In this document: piece by piece, positions 1 through 13,225 of the stretch
How the letters are laid out: each line of letters opens with the position of its first letter
Position numbering within the stretch: the first letter of the stretch is position 1
Assembly: GCA_043228905.1 (NCBI GenBank)
Contig: JBHGNT010000003.1
Location: forward strand, 2,790,001 to 2,854,000
From: Azolla caroliniana
Taxonomy: Eukaryota > Plantae > Polypodiophyta
Length of the DNA stretch: 64,000 nt
Reading direction: 5' to 3'
Notes under the pieces: generated by a model
What the model was told of the DNA's origin: nothing
Seen by the model: the letters and a program-made list of their open reading frames with translations, nothing else
Databases searched by the model: none
Position numbers and translations under genes: made by a program

Positions 1-2189
1 CATTTTCGGGAGAAAAATCCGCATTCGGGCAACCGGAGATCTTGGTGGTAGGTCACTTGTGTGGAGCATACGGCCGGAAGCCCTCGCCATCCAAAGTGAA
101 CGCAATCCAAGACATGAAAGAAGAATGCGAAAACCAAACGGAGGTTCGAAGGTTCCTTGGAGCGTGCGCGTTTTATCATATATGGATTCCTCACTACGCT
201 CATGTCGCCGAACCGTTATATGGACTACTAAAGAAAAGAATAAAGTTCGAATGGCGAGACGAGCACACAGAGGCGATGCGAAGATTAAAGAAACTGCTTC
301 TTGAAGCTCCGGCACTAAGGAAGGCCGACTATGCCGAAGGGAAACCAATTTATGTGACCGTAGATACGAGCCCAACCGGAATCGGGTGGGTCATCAATCA
401 AGAAGGTGAAGATAATGCGTGATATGCCGTCCGGTTCGGAGCAAAGGTTCTCAGCGAACGACAACAAAGATATGCCCAAGTCAAGCGGGAACTTTGGGGT
501 ATTGTGTCGGCAGTGAAGACGGACAAAGATTACCTGATCGGATCAGAAGTGATAATAGAGACAGATTGTCTCCCAATTCTCGGAATGGTCTCGGGATGTG
601 CGACCCTAGATCTTGCTATGCTAAGGTGGATCGCCTACATCAAGTCTTTAAACCCAGAGATCCATCACATCGCCGGGAAGAAGAACGCCATGGCTGACAT
701 GCTGTCGAGGGCAAGATTTTCAAATGGAAGTAACATGGTTTCGGAAGATGAAGATGTCGCCCTCGACTTCTTCAAGATGGCTCGATTGTCGGCGGAAGAC
801 CAGGACACGCAAACCCTCCACGCCTTCAACGAGAATGAGTACGAAGGAGAATGGTTACTCATCGGTAGATTCCTAAGAACATTGACGACAGATGCTTCGT
901 TGACAAAGGAGGAGGCCCTACGAATCCGAAAGAAAGCTTACCGATACTTCTTGAAGGGAGGATTCCTTTGGCGACATCCAAAAAGAAGGAAAGGAATACC
1001 ACGTCGAGTGGTGGTAAAGAAAGAAGAGCAAGAGACGCTGATGACCGAATTCCACGAGAGTGCTTGGGCAGGTCATAGAGGAACATGGGCGACGTTCGAA
1101 AAGTTGAAGGAGAAGTACTAGTGGCCAAGCATGTACAAAGATGTACTCCATTTCGTGTCCACATGCGAAACTTGCCAAGTATATTCAAATATACGTCATC
1201 GTGATGAGTTAAAGCCGACATACCCACTCACCATTCACTTCAAATGGATGGTGGATCTGGTCTCGATGCCAATGGGAGTGGGACAAATGAAGTACTTAGC
1301 GCTCGCAAGGGAAGACTTGACAAATCAAGTGGAAGGACGAGCCTTGACAAATAAGACGACTTCAGCTGTTTGTAAATTTTTACTTGAAGATGTTGTTTGC
1401 CGATATGGATGTGTAGGGAAGATAGTGGCCGACCGAGGGGAGTTGGACGCGCACGAAGCGACGGAGCTCTTCGAAAGACTAGGCGTGAAGCTCTCCCTCA
1501 CGACTACCTACAATCCGGAAGCAAATGGGAAGATCGAGCGAGGGCATGGACCTATCGTTAAAGCCATCGTACGGGCATGCAACGGTCGAGTCGGGAATTG
1601 GCCACGACTATTACCCTATGCCTTGTGGGCCGATAGAACGACACATAGCTCGGTAACAGGGTATATGCCGACGGAGCTTATGTATGGACAAAAGCCGATT
1701 ATGCCCATCGAAAGGACGATCGCCTCATGGGTAGCGATACCGTGGGAGAACGAGATGAGCCGAGAAGAGTTATTAGCGGCGCGGATAAGGCAACTTGAAA
1801 GAAGACCTGAAGATTTAGAAAAAGCGCGAAAGATGATGAAGGCAGCCCGAGTAAAGAACAAAGTTCGGTTCGACAACACGCATCGACTTCGTCCCAAGAA
1901 GATTGAAGAAGGGGATTGGGTTTTGGTTTACGACAGCACCCTTGACAATCAACATAGTACAACAAGGAAGTTCGCAAGAAAATGGTTCGGGCCGTATGTG
2001 GTGACAAGTGCCAACGATAATGCCACATACCACCTTGCGGAACTAGACGGATCAAGGTTGGCCGTACCCATTGCGGGAAAAAGAGTAAAGCTTTTTAAGA
2101 AAATACAAGACAAGGATCCTGACCTCGATTACCTCGACGATGAACATAATAGGCCGGATGAAAATGAAGACATGGAGGAATCTAATTGA
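1..2189 (+). mobile_element. Ty3/gypsy element A, 3' part of pol (RT end, RNase H, integrase), disrupted by premature stops
   Basis: ORFs 42-422, 504-1121 and 1131-2189 give VRRFLG, RNase H (VDTSPTGIG, TDCLPIL), integrase zinc finger (H..GH...C..CQ), core VDLV/VADRG/YNPEANGKIER and W.GPY; RT-RH-INT order is gypsy. Stops at 420-422 (TGA) and 1119-1121 (TAG). Confidence 0.95.
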
Positions 2190-2261
2190 TCATCATAGCC
2201 GAAATCTCACTTCTTCTCTTCTTGGCACGTACCGGAGGACGTGCGGTTTGGTGGGGGTGGA

Positions 2262-3257
2262 TGTCGTGAAGATTTTCGGCAATAGTGTGAAAATCCCATA
2301 AAACGTACAAAATCGAGTATGAATCATGTAGTACAATAATTGTGAAGATAACATTTTTAATATCTAAGTACAAAATGATGGAGGTTTCGAATGCACTTTA
2401 TTACACGAGAAATGGACAACTAAATGTCAAGATATGAGGGTATAAAGTTTGTGAAAAGAAAAGAGAAAATTGTGAGATATCCCACATAGGCACGACAAAT
2501 ACGGCTCTCATCATATATAAGGTGGAGCAAAAGATATTATCTTTGTGTCTATGTGTGGAGCATTGAGAGTTCAAGGTAACTTGAACTTAGAGTGGAGGTG
2601 GCTAGCTACTCGAAAAGGGTTTTGGCCAACCAAAACCAAACCGGCGATGGAGCCGGTGATCCAACCGCAATCCGGCGGCGGCATGCGGCACCAGTTTCCG
2701 GCGTCGACGGCGGCACCGGTATCCGGCGTCGGCATCCGGCGACTAGATAAAATAAATATATAAAAATATATACATATTTTACATATACAAGGAGGGCAAG
2801 TATAGATTCGAACCTTGCACCTCCAAGTTAGGAGTCAAATGGCTTACCATTAAGCCATAGTATTTAGTTGAAATTATATTTCTATCATTGTAGTTTTACA
2901 TGTAAATTCTCATCCATGAGTGCTAAAATGAGTGACATGGTTAGCATGCACCACATGTAATACTTAAGCGCCAAATGGCAAACATGGAATTTATGCATGT
3001 CTTGTACCCTCACATGCATCATATGCATGAGAGCATCTATAAAAGAGGGAAGGGGGAGGAGAAAAACACGGTTTTTTTTATGAAAATTAAGAAGAAGAAA
3101 TTCGTTATCAAATCAATCGTGTAATCTCATCTTCTCTCTTTCCCAATCTATCTTAAGTACTTTCTCGCCAAAGCTTGTATCGACTCTAAATCCTTCTGGT
3201 CCAGAACCCCGGCGGTTCCGCCTCACGATCCGCGCATAGTGACGGATCTTCACGACA
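2262..3257 (+). repeat. 3' LTR of gypsy A (~996 bp)
   Basis: TG...CA ends with a perfect 12-bp terminal inverted repeat (TGTCGTGAAGAT ... ATCTTCACGACA); G-rich PPT-like GGTGGGGGTGGA at 2250-2261; gag sequence of another element resumes at 3258. Confidence 0.9.
2792..2867 (-). other. tRNA-derived module (Pol III A box + B box) inside the gypsy A LTR
   Basis: Minus strand reads TGGCTTAATGG (A box) ... CTCCTAA (anticodon-loop-like) ... GGTTCGAATC (B box) at tRNA-like spacing; the acceptor stem does not pair, so it is not a functional tRNA. Confidence 0.65.
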
Positions 3258-6200
3258 CCGCGCACCCCCTGAGGAGGAATTACGGACTATATTCCTAAAT
3301 GCGCTCAGAGAACCCCTACACACGGTTTGCACGGTAATCGACTTCCACACAAGTACCATCGACCAGGTCATTGACCGGGTGAGAGAGATGGAAAAGACAA
3401 GCTTATGGCTCACACTGGGAGCACTTCAACGGGCGTTACCGTCCAATGAAGACCTTCGGTTTCGGCAAGCAATACAATGCATAACCTGCTTGAATTCCGG
3501 GCACTCGGCTCTACAATGCACTATGAGGACGCAATGTGTAATCTGTCAATCCAAGAGCCATACGATGGATAGGTGCGAGTATAATCTGTTAAACCGGCAA
3601 GTACCGCCCGTCCGACAAATTGAGCCACGCAGCAGCCGGGATGAAGACGAATGCAGGCGGCGAATGGACCGTGACCGACCGGCACAGGATGTCCGGTATG
3701 GCGATCGATGGGAAAATGATGTCCGGTATGACGATCAGCGGGATAACTATGACCGGCATGATCGGTACCAGGATTACAATAGACGATACGAACATTACGA
3801 CCGGGAGCACTCCCCCGGGTATCGTCAGCAACGGGAGGAATACGGTAGATATAACGAGCAACCCCGTCAAGAGTACCGTAATAAGAAGAGCTATAACAAA
3901 AAACGACATTTTAAAAAAAGCAGCTCCCCCGGGATCCGGAACAAGGAGCTCCAAGCAGCCAACCGGTACAAAACCCCGCCCGTACCGCAGGACCTGCCCC
4001 GGGTACGACAGACAATGCCGAATCTAGCAATACCCGGAAGGCCTACTGCTACTACTGCCGATAGGAAGGCCATTAAAGTAACCAAGGCCCGGTGAAGAGC
4101 TATGAAAAACGACCGGCAGTAAATATGGTAGTCCCTAAGGTGGCAGATCTGCAGCAGGTAACCACAAGGTCGAAGGGCATGGCCAAAGAATGGGAGACAC
4201 AGGAGACCATCCGGAAACAAGCAACGGAATGGGTAAAGAAAGCAAACGAGCAGAATGTCACAGACTTATAGCGGCAAAAGGAGAACACCGCAAGGCTTGC
4301 CGGTGGTAGTCACTCCGAGAACGAGACATGGCAGGCGTTTCAAGAATGCCAGATTACGTTACCACTAGGAAGACTCCTACAACTCGTGCCAAGATTCACG
4401 GAAGGACTGAAGACGGCCATGACGGCACCGGTACTCTTCTCGAATCCGGAGGAGGGCCCAACGGTGGTGGACACCAGCAGTCCGATAATCACTACCATTG
4501 TAAAAGGGAAAGAACTCCCCGGCATAGTTATAGACGGAGGCTCTGGGGTAAATGTAATAAGCCTCCGGATGTGTGATGCCCTAGGAATCCACGAGTGGGA
4601 GCCGTGTCCGTTCTAGTTGCGGATGGCCGATACAAGCTCAGTGCGGCCGACAGGATTAATACGGAAATTAGAAGTCATCGTGGGCGGTCATACATTTCAC
4701 ATCTCGGCCGTAGTGCTACAATTACAGGCACAAGGCGCATACCCACTATTGTTGGGGCGGCCATGGTTGAAAACGGCACATATCAAACAGAATTGGCGAA
4801 AAAATATAATTACCTTTCGGCGAGGAAAAGCCAAGGTACGGGTACCAACACAGCCAAGGACGAGCAGTGGCAAGGAATGTACACCATTGTATGCGGAATG
4901 CGTCAACATGCTAGAAGAGTTAGCGGATGAAGAAGAAGCTCAGTACCTGCAGGAAAACCCGAAGATCATACCTCTCTTCGAAATTGACATTGCCGAAGCA
5001 GTAGCACCATACTTACCGCAACCGGAAGAGGCTGAAGCAGAACCGGATAAAGACGCAATCCAGGCGTTACGGCAAGCGCAGGAAGCGTTGGAACAGGAAA
5101 TGGCCGTTTCACAGCGCGTAAAAGCATCGCAACTGGAAGAGGTGAATTTAGGGACCACGGAAGAAGCAAAACCGGTGCACATCGCCAAGGAGATGAAGTC
5201 CGAAGACAAAACGGCGATGATCACACTTCTCACGGAATTTCGCGATGTATTCGCCTGGTCATACGAAGACATGCGAGGACTCGACCCTCAATTATACAAA
5301 CATCAAGTGCACTTGAGCAAGGACGCAAAACTAGTGGCACAAAGACGGTACCGGATGAATCCCAATTATGCCGCCAGGGTCAAGGAAGAAATCGACAAAC
5401 TGCTAAGAGTTGGCTTTATCCGTCCGGTAAAAAAAGCGACATGGCTGAGACCGATCGTAGTCGTACCGAAGAAGAACAGAAAAATTCGAGTTTGCGTGGA
5501 CTACCAGAAACTCAATGCGGCTATGGTAACAGATGCGTTTCCACTTCCGTTCACAGATGGAGTGTTGGATGTCGTCGCCGGCCATGAGGTCTATAGCTTC
5601 CTAGACGGATTCAGCGGGTATAATCAGATCCGGATGCACCCCGACGACCAAGAGAAAACGGCATTCGTCACCGAATGGGGGATGTTTGTGGCCGTGGTGA
5701 TGATGTTCAGACTCAAAACGGCACCGGCAACATTTCAACAAATCATCATGGAAATCTTTGGTGAATATATACCGGCTTTTATGCAGGTTTTCCTTGACGA
5801 TTTCGCCGTCTATAGCCGGCAGGAGGACCATTTTCAGCACCTCCGTCTTTGTCTAGAAAAGTGTAGAGCGTACCGGCTAAGCTTGAATCCGGCAAAGTGT
5901 GTATTTAACGTGTCCAGTGGAACTCTATTGGGACATATTGTGAGCCAGGAAGGTATCGCAGTCGACCCAGACAAAGTGAAAGCCATATTAGAAGCACCGG
6001 CGCCAGTAACGGCAAAGGCATTAAGCCGGTTCTTAGGCCAAATCCGGTGGCACAGCCGGATGCTCCGATACTTGGCTGACCTAGCTACACCGTTGCATGC
6101 CGCCGTACATCGGACACCATTCAGTGGACCGACACCGAGAATAGAGCGTATAGGGCCCTCAAGGTACTATTGTCGCAGGCACCGATAGTACAACCTCCGG

Positions 6201-8045
6201 ATTGGAGTAAAGAATTTCACGTGTTCGTGGACGCCTCCGACATCACAATCAGAAGCGTACTGATGCAACTTACGGAACCAAAGTGGTACCGGCCAGTGTA
6301 CTATGCCAGCCGGAAGCTATCCCAAGCAGAACGGAACTACTCTACTACGGAACGCGAAGCTCTAGGGATGATCTACCGTGTGACAAAGTTTCGGCATTAC
6401 TTATTGGGAAGGAAGTTTTCCTTCCATGTAGATCATTCGGCACTCCTTTACCTGGTGTCCAAAGCGTCACTCACCAGCAAATTGGCCCGGTGGACCTTAC
6501 CGTTACAGGAGTTCGAGTTTGAAATATTCCACCGACCCGGTATACAACATGCCGTGGCGGATTACTTAAGCCGATTAGAGTCCGGAGAGACGGGGGACGG
6601 AGTAGCGGATGAGTTTCCGGATGCGGAGCTGTTTCGAGTCACTACGGAGACGGTAGCAGATGAGACGGTGGCACAGGAAGACAAATGGCTGACAAATATG
6701 CACCAGTTTCTGAGCACAGGACTGCCTCCGGAAGAGATGAACCGGGATGAACGGAAATGCCTGGCGGTGCAAAGCCGACATTTCTGCTTACTGCAAGACA
6801 CACTGTACCACAAGGGCGCGGACGGCATCTGGAGACGGGCGGTGCGCAGCGATGAAAAGGAACTGATACTGAGGGAAGCCCACTGCGGAGTTGCCGGAGG
6901 TCACTATGACGGAGATGCGAGGACCAGGAAAATATGGCAAAGTGGCCTATGGTGGCCAACGACACTAAGAGATGCGGTACGATACGCAAAAGAATGTGAC
7001 CTATGCTAGAGAATGCACCAGCCAACGGAGCAGGCTCGTATGCCACACCAGCCGGTACTACCACTCGAGCCATTCCAGAAGTGGGGGCTGGACTTTGTAG
7101 GACCCTTCAAGCCACCGGCAATGACAACGGGTAATCGGTACGTCATCGTTGCTACGGATTATTGCACGAAATTGGTGGAGGCCAAAGAATTAAGGGATAA
7201 CACCGTTGCGTCAACGGCGAAGTTTCTATATGAGTACATCTAGTGCCGTTACGGATGCCCAATTGAATTAATAAGTGACCAAGGGGGGCACTTTCTCGGC
7301 CAAGTAGTGGAAAGCCTGACGACATTCTATGCCGTTGTCCACAAACGAAGCACACCTTATTATTCAGAGGCGAACGGTTTAGCGGAATCAACAAACAAGA
7401 CGCTCCAGAATATCCTCCGGAAGATGTCAACGAAAACCGGATGGATTGGGACACAAAGCTACATACAAAACGAGCATCCGAACAACACCGTTCCGGTTAG
7501 CTTTCGGACTCGAGGCGGTAATGCCGGTAGAATTCCAAGTACCCAGCTTACGGATCCAGCTACGGGAACGGCTGAACGAGAAGGAGTCGGAGGCAATACG
7601 GTTGACAGCGCTGTGTGAGCTCGAGGAACAACGACTGGCCAGCATCCTACATTTAGAATTGGAGCAACGGCGATGGAAAGCATTTGTCGACCGGCACAGG
7701 AAAGGTAACGAAAAAATGTTCGCAATCGGCAAACTGGTGTTAGTATTCGAAACCCGGATTGGCAAGATGCCGGGTAAACTACGGTTTAGATGGACCGGAC
7801 CGTATTGGCTAACACGGTAGTATAATGGGTCCTACCAGTTAGGGACACTTGCCGGCGAAGTGCTAGGCAAATGGGTCAACGGATTCCGGTTGAAGGCATA
7901 TAGAGGACCGATGCCTAAGAACCCATTTGAGCAAAGGACCGACACCAGTGAGGGAAACGGTAACCACCAAGACGGCCGAGAAGGCGAGCCAGTAACTGGG
8001 GAGAATGAGGCCGGTAAGGGTCCGAGAGGACCAACGGACAAGTGA
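3258..8045 (+). mobile_element. Ty3/gypsy element B gag-pol (5' part displaced by insertion of element A), with stops and frameshifts
   Basis: Gag with two CCHC knuckles (CITC..SGH....C, CVIC..KSH....C) and a degenerate third near 4045; protease IDGGSG; RT (DVFAWS, FLDGFSGYNQI, FLDD); RNase H (FVDAS, YYASRKL, NYSTTEREAL); integrase (WGLDFVGP, SDQG, EANGLAE, W.GPY). Confidence 0.95.
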
Positions 8046-9786
8046 CGTCACACTAATAATAATAATAACTAAAAAAAAAAAAAAACAATCATGGAAAAGC
8101 GAGGAATGAATGGATGAAAGAGCGAGGAGCGAAAAGGTACGTAGTGGGCATTTAAAGCGCCACCACAGGACATAATGCTATTTTAGTACACGACATGCAC
8201 ACACTCAAAAAAGGCACCAGAATGCACAGACAAAAACCACTGCGCGTAGAGATCCTCTACTTTCACGAACCCAGGAGCACAGAAGCACCAAGACGCTGCA
8301 AGATCATCAGACGAGAACCTGCGCACAGAGAACCCCCGCCTTCTGAACTCTCTCTTTCTCAACCTCACTGTGTGCATCTTCTTCATGGAATCCTCTCTAT
8401 TCTCCCTTCTCTTTCTCCTTCTACTTCTTCTGTGTCGTTTCCCGCCATGTCTTCCTCCTTCTTTGGTTCTTTTTCTTCCTTTCGTTTTCTTTTGTTCTGT
8501 CTCATTTTCTGCTTTGTACTTCATCTTTCTCTTCTTTCTATCTTCCTCTTTTGTTTTGCATCTCCCTTCTTCCTATGGTTGTTTTTGCTTCCTCTTCTTC
8601 TGATGTTTTGTGTGTTTCCATTTTTGTCTCTGACTTTGGTTCCGGACCCGTCTCCGTCCGTCGTCCTTCGTCTCTTCATTGTCCGTCGGCGTCTCTATCT
8701 CTGTCACTGGCTGCTGATCCGTCGGCGTCGGCGTCGGTGTCACCTCCTCCCGGTCATCCTTCTTTATTGTTGTCTTTGTCTAGCTAGTCCGTCCGCTCTA
8801 GCCACTCCAACCACTCTCCGGCTGTTGTTTGGCCGTCATTCCAGTCGCTACGGTCACTCTTTGGCTACTCTCCGGCCATTTCGACTGTTCCTTGGCCATT
8901 GTTCTTCTATCGTCATCTCTGTCTCGTCGCTTGTCTGTCTATGACCGGCCGCTTTTGTTCATCGGTGGGGACTTTCCTTTAGCACTCTCTGTTCAGCCCT
9001 CTAGCGGCTCCGTTCCCGTATCTGTTGCTTCCCTCTGTCGCTCTGTGTCTATCCGCTGCCACTGTCTATTGTCTTTCGGTTCGTATCGACCGGTTGTCCG
9101 GTAGTCCGGTCCGGAGGTCTCTGTTTTGGCGCCGTTCGGCCACTATGACCGCTCTTAGGTCGCTCTCTGGCCTCGTCCAGCCGCTCCGGTTGCTCCAACT
9201 ATTGTCCGGCTGTTTCCGGTCCTTCCGACTGCTCTTTCCACAGTCTGGCCCATCAGGCCATGTCTGTCCGGTCCATCTCCAGACATCTCTGTCACCGGCC
9301 TTGTCGGCGCTATTCAGCCAATCTGCAGTTGGCCGTCCGTCCTGTGGCCACTCTGTTCAGTCGTCATATGGTTGTTGGCCGTTGATATCTGATGGTTGTC
9401 TCTTTCATCACACGTTCTTGCACACACACGTTGCTAGTTCTCGTACACTTGCACATCTGTATCGCTGCGTCTCATTCTGTGACTTTTCTAGGACATTGTG
9501 ATCACCATTTGCTGCGCAACATCGATTCGATTTATCGTACATTCTTCCACTCCGTCCATTCATTGACTTCTTTGCAGACATCCTCATCACATATCATGCT
9601 TCAACTCCGTCTCGCACTTTGCCACCGTCATTTGTCGCTAATCGCAACCGCACACTCGCGTATCTATGTCGTCGTTACTCACACATGTCCACCATTTCTT
9701 GCACTTGGTCACTATGTCTTGCATCGCCGCGTATCATTCTTCGACTCCGTCTCGAAAGGGGGGTTGCCTTAGTGGTCACCAAAATG
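8046..9786. other. long non-coding 3' region of gypsy B, pyrimidine-rich on + from ~8340
   Basis: A-tract near 8071-8085, A-rich to ~8340, then C/T-rich low-complexity sequence to ~9750; ends GAAAGGGGGG-TTGCCTTA-GTGGTCACCA-AAATG. Confidence 0.6.
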
Positions 9787-10154
9787 TGTTATAGGTTGTT
9801 AGAGTTAGGGTTAGGGTTAAGGATGATGATGGTTAACGATGACGAAGATAGACATGGTGAAATAACAAAGATGATGAAGAGTATGATGGTGAGAGAGATT
9901 GACATGAAGTTGTTGAGAATTATTGAGAAGCATTGCGGGGTAAGGATGACATTGATGAGCATTGCGGGGTGGGGGGTGGTGCCTAGAATGGCTCCACCCC
10001 CCACCCCACAATGCTTCTCAATGCTTGTCTTGTTCTCTATATGATCTCTCTCACCATCATACTCTCCATCACCATGTCTATCTTCATTACCAATTATTAT
10101 AGTTATCATTCATCATCATCGTCGTCCTTAACCCTAACCCTAAAACTTACAACA
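9787..10154. repeat. fold-back (imperfectly palindromic) LTR-like terminus of gypsy B with TTAGGG repeats
   Basis: TGTT...AACA ends; mirrored blocks TTAGGGTTAGGGTTAAGGA / TCCTTAACCCTAACCCTAA, GAAGATAGACATGGTGA / TCACCATGTCTATCTTC and GAGTATGATGGTGAGAGAGAT / ATCTCTCTCACCATCATACTC around a central G-rich/C-rich hairpin; copia coding sequence resumes at 10155. Confidence 0.75.
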
Positions 10155-11883
10155 GAAAGAAATTATGGAGATCACTAAACCATTAGAAGTAGTAATGGGT
10201 GATCTTTCTCCCGAAGTGGATTTTGCACAAGATAATTTAGAAATTCTTGATGATGATGATTTTTCCCTTAGTGCTGAAGAAGACATTCATGGACCGGATA
10301 GTGTCAAGTGGAAAGAAGCAATGCAACTTGAGATTGATGCTTTGCTAAAGAATGACACTTGGAAACTTATTAAACCTCCAGAAAACTGAAATATCATCTC
10401 ACTAGGTTTTGACCAAGAAGTTTGATTCACAGGGAGCTCTACTTCGACACAAGGCACGACTTGTTGCTCGAGGGTTTTCACAAGTTCTAGACCTTGACTT
10501 CACAACCACTTTTGCCCCAACTCCAAAAGCAGTTCAGCTAAGGTTTATGTTTGCTATAAGTGCTGGCTTAAACCTAGAATTATACCATCTTGATGTAGAA
10601 ATGGCTTTCCTTCATGACGACTTGGATCAGGAAATTTATATGGAGGAACCTCCCTTCTTTGTAAATCCAAAGAATCCTCATCATGTGTGCAAACTCAAGA
10701 AATTCTTATATGGTCTCAAACAATCACCTAGAATGTGGCATTTGAAGCTGCATACTTACCTTGAATCTACTGGATTCAAATGTCTTCAAGTAGAACCAAA
10801 TTTATACATCCAAAAGGAAGGTAAAAATTTTATACTTCTTGGTGTCTATGTTGATGACCTCCCTATTGCTTCATATTCAATTAATGCTATGAGGGAGACC
10901 ATCTCCCAACTAAAAATGATGTTTCCAGTCAAAGACTTAAGAACAATGGAGTTTTGCCTTGGTATCAAAGTTACTCGAAACCGAATGGAAGGTACTCTCA
11001 CTCTTTAACAAATGAAGTTCGGAAGATATATTAAAGAAATTGACATGGCTAATTGCAAACCTATTTAAACACCAATGACAATACCATGCAAACTATCTTC
11101 TAATGATACTCCACAAACTATAATGGACGAGAAAATCATGGCATCGCTTCCATATCGCCAAATTTTAGGAAGTGTCCGGTATTTGGTAAGTTGTACACGA
11201 CCAATTTATCTTTTTGTGTTGGTTTTCTATCTAGGTTTATGCAAAATCCTGGAATAGCACATTGGCAAGCCCTAAAGTGGGTTCTCCGCTACCTACAACA
11301 TACCAAATCCATGGTACTTACTTACCGCAGCTTCCAATTCTAGAATTCATCCCAACTGAACAGATGGCTTTATGCTCCCCTACAAGGTTGGATGTATTCT
11401 GATTGGGGAGGGGATATTGACACCTCTCGACCAACCTCTAGTATGCTCTTCACATTTGCTGGAGGTGCTATAGAATGGCGAAGTAAAAGACAAATTTCGG
11501 TGGTGTTGTCAAGTATTGAAGCAGAGTATGTAGCAGAAGCTCTCACAGGCAAAGAAGGAATCTGGATTAAGGCAATTATTGAAGAGCTTGACGTTTTCAA
11601 ACTCTCACAAATGAAAACCTATTGTGACAATCAGTCGTGTATAAAGTTAGTTGAAAACCCAAAGATCATAGATCAAAACAAACACATTAGAGCTCGACAT
11701 CACTTTATAAGAGAATTGGTAGCAACTAAAGAAATGATTTTACAATTCACTTCAACAAGCACCATGTGGGTTGATTTCTTAACAAAACCTGTCTCAAGCC
11801 AAAAGCATTGGTTGTGTTGTTCTAAAATTGGCCTTAGTTTACTAAACCCTAAGAAGAAATAAATTGCTTACCTTAAGGGGGGG
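10155..11883 (+). mobile_element. Ty1/copia remnant (RT, RNase H, PPT), host of the gypsy nest
   Basis: WKEAMQLE..AL.KNDTW, KARLVARGF, LDVEMAFLH, LYGLKQSPRMW, VYVDD, YSDWGG, SSIEAEY, CDNQS, KHIRARHHF; PPT AAGGGGGGG at 11875-11883. Confidence 0.93.
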
Positions 11884-12258: not shown

Positions 12259-13225
12259 CATAGTACGTAAAATTCGTGTTCGTCTGCCATATCATTCGTT
12301 TTCATACGTTGGAAAACGAACACGAATGATATGCAAATATTCGTGTGTTTTTTTTTTTTCATTTTTTTTCATTTTTTTTTCAATTTTTTTCAATTTTTCC
12401 CTCTTTTCTCCCTTTTCCTCTGCACTAACGTTACGCTCTCTTCTCCTCTACAACCTAGCCTCAAACGATTTGCGATTCTGCAGAGTGCATTCAACCTTCA
12501 GGTATATTTAGTGTAGAAATATGGTTTTAATTTCAGTGATAAAATTTCTGTGCTGAAAAATCAGAAATTTCTGTGCTAAAAAATCAGAAATTTCAGTGCT
12601 AAAAAATCAGAAATTTCATCACAGAAATTTCTGTGATGAAATTTCATCAACGAAATTTCAGTGATGATTGAAATTTCTAAAATTTCAATCAAATTTTCTA
12701 AAATTTCAATCATCACTGAAATTTCTAAAATTTCAATGATGAAATTTCTAAAATTTCAATGATGAAATTTCTAAAATTTCAATGATGAAATTTCATCTTT
12801 CAGAAATTGATGAACAAGAAGCACAAGAAGTTGATGAAAATGAGAGCCTCACCAATGTGATGTCTTATCTTGATGATAATGCACAAGATGAGGATGATGA
12901 TTTTGAAGATGATGATATCACCTTGAATGAAGATTAGGAATGCTCGTTTTGATGTAACACCTCATTGAGGATTTTTTTGGAGACTAGGCATTTTGGGTAG
13001 TTGTTATTAGAATTTACGAAAAAAAGCATATTGTTATTAAGAAGGTAATATGTTTTTTTTTTGCAATTTTTTAAAATTTTTTTCCGTGAAAAAATGTTTA
13101 CCTTATAGTAAACCATTTATCCAAAAGTATGGTATTTATCATTCTTCGAGAGTGTTTATCATTCTCGAATGATTGAATCATTCTCGAGCACGAATGCACG
13201 AATGGTACGCATGGTTCATACTATG
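12259..13225. mobile_element. non-autonomous hAT-type DNA transposon (967 bp)
   Basis: Perfect 8-bp TSD TTCCAGAT (12251-12258, 13226-13233); short TIR CATAGTA(C/T)G; subterminal CACGAAT/ATTCGTG motifs; internal GAAATTTC minisatellite (~12540-12800); acidic coding-like remnant (EIDEQEAQEVDENE...EDDDFEDDD) at ~12805-12935. Confidence 0.85.

Follow-up and report, generated by a model that had tools for sequence, protein, structure and literature searches.

A clade of Ty3/gypsy retrotransposons from seed-free plants may start both strands of its cDNA with host tRNAs. The textbook rule for LTR retrotransposons and retroviruses assigns the minus strand to a tRNA primer and the plus strand to a polypurine tract (PPT); the 3' junctions described here carry a copy of a tRNA tail where the PPT is expected. 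Judging from the sequences of these ends, we give slightly better than even weight to the view that a clade comprising the coding element L020, probably Gypsy B, and the non-coding family C primes both strands with host tRNAs and has abandoned the PPT, and, jointly with this, that the priming sites in the clade are mirror images and the cDNA ends mechanistically symmetric. The starting point was a window of Azolla caroliniana DNA (the whole 64,000-nt stretch analyzed), for which an initial annotation proposed that a tRNA-end copy replaces the PPT of Gypsy B. That idea finds support at the 3' end of C (L002, L004, L007, L008 and L009) and in L020, but fails for the 10 nt originally flagged, which lie in the wrong element (C, not B) and at the wrong end (a 5' primer-binding site, PBS).

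The first 12 kb of the window are a nest of broken elements, namely Gypsy A, Gypsy B, the questioned region and a Copia reverse transcriptase (RT) (Table 1). All motifs that had been reported between 9754 and 10159 match the sequence letters: GAAAGGGGGG at 9754-9763, TG at 9765, GTGGTCACCA at 9772-9781, AAATG at 9782-9786, and a 368-bp unit, TGTT..AACA, at 9787-10154 with GAAAG directly after it. The gag-pol part of Gypsy B spans 3247-8046, and B's own 3' LTR and 5' end lie outside the window. In B's high-depth tail (8197-8360), a reading frame opens after the integrase (INT) and is cut at the junction. Elsewhere in the window, 23-nt-period repeats at 12517-12808 form a second fold-back, and ~20400-64000 holds a tandem gene family, that is, several related open frames of 330-510 aa in both orientations with common flanks.

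Table 1. Coordinates of features in the window, with the strand and the basis of each assignment.
Feature	Position	Strand	Basis or remark
Gypsy A RH-INT	1-2189		unrelated element
Control: G-rich PPT-like tract of Gypsy A	2250..2261	+	adjoins TG 2262 (sequence)
Gypsy B, broken gag-pol (gag, RT, RH, INT) and 3' tail	3247..8360	+	Pfam, tblastn to P0002, tree
Junction of B tail and C	8361..8371	.	depth step; B-type loose end behind 8360; contig with unlike left flank
Purine-rich internal region of C, without gag-pol match	8372..9753	-	tblastn against 120 Gypsy proteins
Conserved C-run leader just behind the PBS	9754..9771	-	alignment of 13 5' junctions
Putative PBS of C (minus-strand DNA priming, 5' LTR side)	9772..9781	-	10-mer at 14/17 LTR ends
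5-nt spacer, LTR end to PBS	9782..9786	-	C(C/A/T)TTT at 14/14 PBS junctions
U5 and internal hairpin of C's 5' LTR, left arm of fold-back	9787..10002	-	matches 3' part of the 489-512-bp LTRs
CCACCCCCC, common to both hairpin arms, inferred crossover point	9994..10002	.	family copies diverge from the window here
U5 end of second C-family LTR copy, right arm of fold-back	10003..10154	+	ends CA on Copia sequence
Copia RT/RH fragment, right flank	10155..11862	+	RVT_2 E 8e-48, ORFs

We placed contigs of four runs (X1, X5, X13, X14) on 7000-9790, where placed depth is not copy number. In X1, depth was 43,000-113,000 over the B integrase and stayed high until 8400. From bin 8316-8409 to bin 8410-8503, it dropped from 40254 to 363 (X1), from 9800 to 98 (X5), from 3469 to 48 (X13) and from 2486 to 0 (X14), a fall of 70-110-fold or to zero in each run. 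B-type contigs diverge from the window behind 8360. The first 397 letters of a 528-nt contig of depth 180 match 8372-8768, and to the left this contig runs on into 131 unlike letters. Because depth collapses near 8400 in all four runs, 8372-10154 is not the 3' end of Gypsy B in most copies. The depth step and the unlike flank at 8372 contradict the proposal that the 368-bp unit ends Gypsy B, and a check suggested with that proposal, whether 8340-10154 occurs unlinked to this gag-pol, found 8372-10154 mostly unlinked to it. The best fit to the depth step and to the contigs of family C is an alternative that the initial annotation had itself mentioned, the 5' LTR and PBS of a separate minus-strand element. 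The window most likely holds a truncated C copy (U5, PBS and 1.4 kb of internal sequence) abutting the cut tail of B, an element whose RT has its nearest named relatives in Riccia and Adiantum.

A terminus scan yielded 16 metagenome contigs of family C from 8 assemblies, probably of one campaign, which we read in the window's minus sense. The LTR of the family, TGTTA...TAACA, is 489-512 bp long and occurs as direct repeats with TG...CA ends; its start, TGTTAC, is set by host junctions in L016 and L007, and its end, TAACA, by those in L007, L012 and L014. GTGGTCGCCA was found at 14 of the 17 LTR ends, which continue with 5 nt and then TGGCGACCAC, the other three running into flanking DNA. The PBS slot at 9772..9781 reads TGGTGACCAC in the window and TGGCGACCAC in other C copies. 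The earlier guess that the single mismatch to the tRNA reflects a CpG is borne out by G in 14/14 PBS-bearing LTR ends (16 contigs) versus A at 9778 in the window. The internal part, 1.8-2.3 kb and purine-rich, gave no tblastn match to 120 Gypsy proteins in the 16 contigs (E 1e-3), nor was there a convincing match to these proteins at 8372..9753 in the window; a gag ORF on C's minus strand was rejected after tblastn with Gypsy proteins. Window positions 8394-8458 correspond to 2163-2229 of L009 (element sense), in which the LTR start is at 2922, and the window's C copy is cut ~700 bp before the tRNA-end copy and the 3' LTR.

In each of the four LTRs checked, TAT(T/A)TAA at 177-230, a CT-rich tract and a telo-box follow one another in the window's minus sense, and a TATA-like box with a CT-rich tract and telo-box behind it reads as promoter and leader. 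This order, the LTR anatomy and L020 (see below) together point to the window's minus strand as the sense of C. Given the box order and the position of the PBS at LTR ends, GTGGTCACCA is most likely the ordinary PBS of C, a separate, non-coding LTR element on the minus strand. Another alternative on record, a PPT at 9754-9763 with the LTR starting at TG 9765, disagrees with base 9754, which is C in 90-99% of depth in each of four runs and in 13/13 PBS-bearing contigs; GAAAGGGGGG is the reverse complement of the leader behind the PBS and was rejected as a PPT, and the LTR boundary is 9787, supported by the host junctions in L007, L012 and L014. At the 5' junctions of L001-L016, the 10-nt PBS is followed after ~5 nt by CGA(A/C)CCCCC, complementary to the tRNA T-arm. 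The leader at 9754..9771 may act as a second segment that pairs with the T-arm of the primer, and the 5' PBS of C may be bipartite too.

No C copy was intact with both flanks (those of L007 are unlike and its 5' LTR is rearranged), and no clean target site duplication (TSD) was seen among the copies examined. LTR-internal-LTR-internal runs occur in L009 (1-5306) and also in L002, L004 and L008; within them the tRNA-end copy precedes, and the PBS follows, one and the same LTR, and neighboring LTRs are only 84% alike. These runs may be genuine tandem arrays or cycles introduced by assembly. When the window was compared with itself by BLAST, the C LTR appeared just once, and viral contigs contained neither a match to the LTR pattern nor a relative of P0001. 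The ratio of LTR to PBS depth was too noisy for use.

The fold-back noticed in the 368-bp unit (9787-10154) is far beyond chance: as RNA, 9740-10170 folds at -212.8 kcal/mol (z = -18.8), with none of 100 shuffles as low. It had been described as a whole palindromic LTR, a description that the family does not bear out. The C LTR is not palindromic and carries a small hairpin only; 11 of 11 hairpin-bearing LTR copies show a normal R region at the hairpin and no mirror arm (only 8 nt in L005), so that none folds back, and the window's arms come from different copies. The left arm (9787..10002) matches the 3' part of LTRs in L002, L004, L009, L013 and L016, and the right arm (10003..10154) is 94-96% alike, in aligned columns, to the L005/L002/L007/L009b type; between the two arms, likeness is 88% in aligned columns and 58.5% with gaps. 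Loose ends behind 10006 were found in 21, 15 and 22 contigs of X1, X2 and X3, respectively. We infer that two U5 halves of different copies were joined head to head through the LTR hairpin by a one-off crossover of oppositely oriented LTRs, for example, an inversion between two LTRs, making the palindrome a likely local rearrangement. A read fold-back artefact was rejected because the arms differ too much, and a palindromic LTR or MITE was rejected given its lack of recurrence as a unit (0/11 copies) and the loose ends behind 10006.

Two further observations concern the LTR hairpin. At 9950-10023, its depth in X1 (296,015) is 10-30 times that of the remaining LTR, which suggests that it is also present in a far more abundant family, possibly B. 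In L004 (1-162) and L008 (1-86, both in element sense), an inverted U3 start lies inside the loop of the hairpin in an LTR variant with a short U5 and the other PBS; the first 131 nt of L004 are an inverted U3 piece, which we interpret as a nested element.

At the 3' end of C, the eight LTR starts with preceding sequence comprise two host junctions and six internal ones (L002, L004, L007, L008 and L009 twice). The six represent about four distinct sequences from two subfamilies (8 assemblies, probably one campaign), and those in L004 and L008 were located via the motif rather than a host junction. All six internal/LTR-start junctions read hairpin-split ...CCCACGGGCGTGCCA, 2-5 nt, TGTTA, and a PPT is present at none of them: over the last 25 nt, purine runs reach at most 3 nt and the purine share is 0.40-0.48. 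Upstream of CCCACGGGCGTGCCA are a small hairpin, GTGC-AAG-GCAC, and a T-arm-like TGTGGG. Between L004 and L009b, the 45-nt site is 85% alike, compared with 51-53% for the 200 nt on either side (the second stretch being the start of the LTR). The 3' 10-mer recurs as its exact reverse complement, TGGCACGCCC, in the PBS slot of L004 and L008, 2 nt after a U5-type end and with a homologous leader downstream; because it occupies this slot within the same family, the 3' 10-mer of C is PBS-like. All 8 occurrences of the 10-mer in 137.8 kb are at LTR junctions, and the window has none; the 3' motif pattern had no match in the prokaryote genomes searched. Since 3' ends without a purine tract carry a tRNA-tail copy, a tRNA likely starts both strands, and for C itself we put priming of the second strand by a host tRNA just on the probable side of even. 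Separately, L011 contains, at ~2247-2275 (element sense) in flanking DNA, GGTCGCCA, 6 nt and TGTTTA, possibly the junction of another family with a different tRNA end.

The initial annotation likened the 10-mer flagged in the window to the 3' end of tRNA-Arg(UCG), a candidate label. The 3' motif of C is matched, apart from one extra base, by the end of a phage tRNA-Arg(UCU), L017, which was retrieved with a pattern built from the motif; only its isotype is therefore informative, and the match and the duplex energies are partly circular. With L017 as a proxy, the predicted pairing in L002 and L009b flanks the looped-out hairpin left and right (-23 to -25 kcal/mol), and the duplexes with C sites reach -23 to -26 kcal/mol versus about -7 for shuffles, a partly circular comparison; the L020 site reaches only -13.2 kcal/mol, with 1 of 200 shuffles as good. 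When the 5' site was used for searching, 40 of 55 stretches were phage tRNAs (28 Arg-UCU, 5 Trp and 7 others). No tRNA gene was found in the window or in L001-L016, one further tRNA-end pattern had no matches, and L018 was not called a tRNA. In the accessible part of one source, the 10-mer TGGCGACCAC is labelled R or W for HERV9 (PMC4724089).

The same layout is present in L020, a 13.8-kb coding element with LTRs 93% alike and an imperfect TSD. Its 5' junction reads AACA, CT and the TGG-starting TGGCGACTCCGCTGGGGA, presumably a PBS of the Arg type; its 3' junction reads AGGGGATCG, a hairpin, CTCCACCAGGTGTGCCA, AG and TGTT (also written ..CCACCAGGTGTGCCA, AG, TGTT) and has no PPT. The sense of L020 is known from its gag-pol, which makes the hairpin-split site the 3' one. 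The spacers, CT and AG, are mirror images of 2 nt each, as would be expected if both strands start after CCA and integrase trims two bases. The leaders of C and L020 align poorly.

B and L020 both have the domain order RT-RH-INT, as in Ty3/gypsy. Pfam found no chromodomain in B or L020 and no archaeal-type RNase H (aRH) in B, the L020 pol, P0002 or P0003, and tree rows with PF13456 form a separate clade; after INT, L020 has a 1051-aa stop-to-stop frame with no Pfam match. In a FastTree phylogeny of 41 rows (37 of the 120 proteins, chosen by hand, plus B, L020, L022 and L025; no lineage references), L020 and B fall into one 11-row clade (SH 100), with RT 59% and RH-INT 54% alike. Of the 16 loci in the set that includes L020, nine were checked for repeats, and L020 alone was both a close relative and full-length: L022 breaks off within RH, and others, such as L034 and L027, are more remote. 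By way of L020, B probably belongs to the group with this layout. L020, like L019, L021 and L022, is a plant-type retrotransposon contig filed in a bacterial MAG; the L020 contig is presumably plant DNA, and its filing probably reflects contamination.

The reading we favor, with modest confidence, is that the flagged PBS is ordinary and that the tRNA-end copy at the 3' end of C takes the place of the PPT, a second host tRNA priming the plus strand there. Under this scheme, a tRNA would prime the minus strand at the 5' PBS, and RNase H would clear the RNA. The minus-strand DNA before U3 would then loop out the small hairpin and pair with ~25 nt of the second tRNA, spanning the acceptor strand, CCA and T-arm; extension from CCA would copy the 2-5-nt spacer and the LTR. 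Finally, RNase H would remove the tRNA primer, and integrase would trim the spacer in the same way as on the opposite side. The enzymes for C would come from a coding relative, possibly the B family.

The plus-strand primer could instead be supplied in cis, if the element's own RNA, ending in CCA, survives RNase H or is cut behind the CCA in the manner of a tRNA-DNA junction, and no second tRNA takes part. The motif does lie within a stem that the sense strand can form (-19 to -22 kcal/mol), and a primer end 2-5 nt before TG corresponds to PPT geometry as given in the available text of PMC5371799. We nevertheless hold this to be unlikely: the site resembles the acceptor strand as well as the T-arm, and the insert between these two parts could loop out; the tRNA-like ends differ between C and L020, each site following its own; and the identical 10-mer serves in a PBS slot. 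A relic, or a copy with another job (packaging, dimerization, integrase end recognition or antisense-RNA priming) in an element whose plus strand is primed elsewhere, appears more doubtful still. C is non-coding and could carry relics, but the 45-nt site is conserved while both flanks are at background, its distance to the LTR is fixed at a junction without a PPT, and the same layout recurs in the coding L020 despite an RT only 59% alike.

Transcription of C in the opposite direction, with the flagged site as its 3' anti-PBS and TGGCACGCCCGTGGGA as its PBS, would make that site a plus-strand site after all, albeit of C rather than B. C has no gag-pol match to set its sense, the hairpin-split site pairs longer with the tRNA than the 10-nt site does, and both ends may be bipartite. 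The order of TATA-like box, CT-rich tract and telo-box contradicts this orientation, and in L020 gag-pol places the hairpin-split site at the 3' end; we consider it very improbable. The least credible account is the original model taken literally, in which the 3' end of B is a palindromic LTR of 368 bp with an anti-PBS in front. What this single window shows agrees with it; the depth step and unlike flank at 8372, the 0/11 LTR copies that fold back and the origin of the arms from different copies do not.

If a second tRNA does prime the plus strand, this natural lineage, having tRNA sites at its two ends, would depart from the rule at the core of the replication cycle. One would then have to ask how a tRNA paired with DNA escapes RNase H, and tRNA fragments would gain a second target on such elements. 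The ends of these elements would be missed or misplaced by annotation tools that rely on finding a PPT. The coordinates flagged in the window are themselves ordinary, a PBS and a one-off rearrangement. Searches by title or abstract start found no description of a tRNA-primed plus strand, of a second PBS or of a tRNA site replacing the PPT, in a coverage that excluded subscription journals and Repbase.

Family C combines features of several known element types. Like TRIM and LARD elements, it is bounded by two direct LTRs, with a PBS and 1.8-2.3 kb of internal sequence that gave no gag-pol match; non-autonomous elements of that type keep a PPT, whereas C has none. The 368-bp unit resembles Foldback elements and MITEs in having inverted ends over its whole length, but it was seen once, has no TSD, and both of its arms are pieces of LTR U5. 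Among the coding lineages, Athila is recognized by its clade position and a tRNA-Asp PBS, and B lacks the aRH of Tat (Pfam). Lineage criteria for Phygy are its clade position, a tRNA-Trp PBS and a 4-bp NCGN TSD, according to the part of PMC6317226 available. As in the plant non-chromovirus lineages Phygy, Selgy, Athila and Tat covered in that part, B and L020 have the order RT-RH-INT and no chromodomain or aRH match, and the long extra 3' ORF of L020 is a feature of many OTA elements (PMC6317226). The same portion reports that tRNA-Arg PBSs are common in TatIII/Ogre/Retand; in it, Neumann et al. 2019 place a PPT ahead of the 3' LTR, their table covers the 5' PBS only, and no 3' tRNA copy of the kind seen in C and L020 is mentioned (PMC6317226).

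The closest mechanistic comparison is with Ty3, in which, according to the accessible text of PMC5371799, a tRNA at a PBS that is bipartite in Ty1/Ty3 primes the minus strand and the plus-strand primer ends before U3. C likewise has a tRNA-type PBS for the minus strand and a putative plus-strand primer that would end near U3. In that text, the plus-strand primer of Ty3 is a purine tract of its own RNA, whereas C is without one, and the second PBS segment of Ty3, located in U3, is complementary to the same minus-strand primer (PMC5371799). The 3' site of C, by contrast, reads in the sense of the tRNA itself, is located outside the LTR and would replace the PPT.
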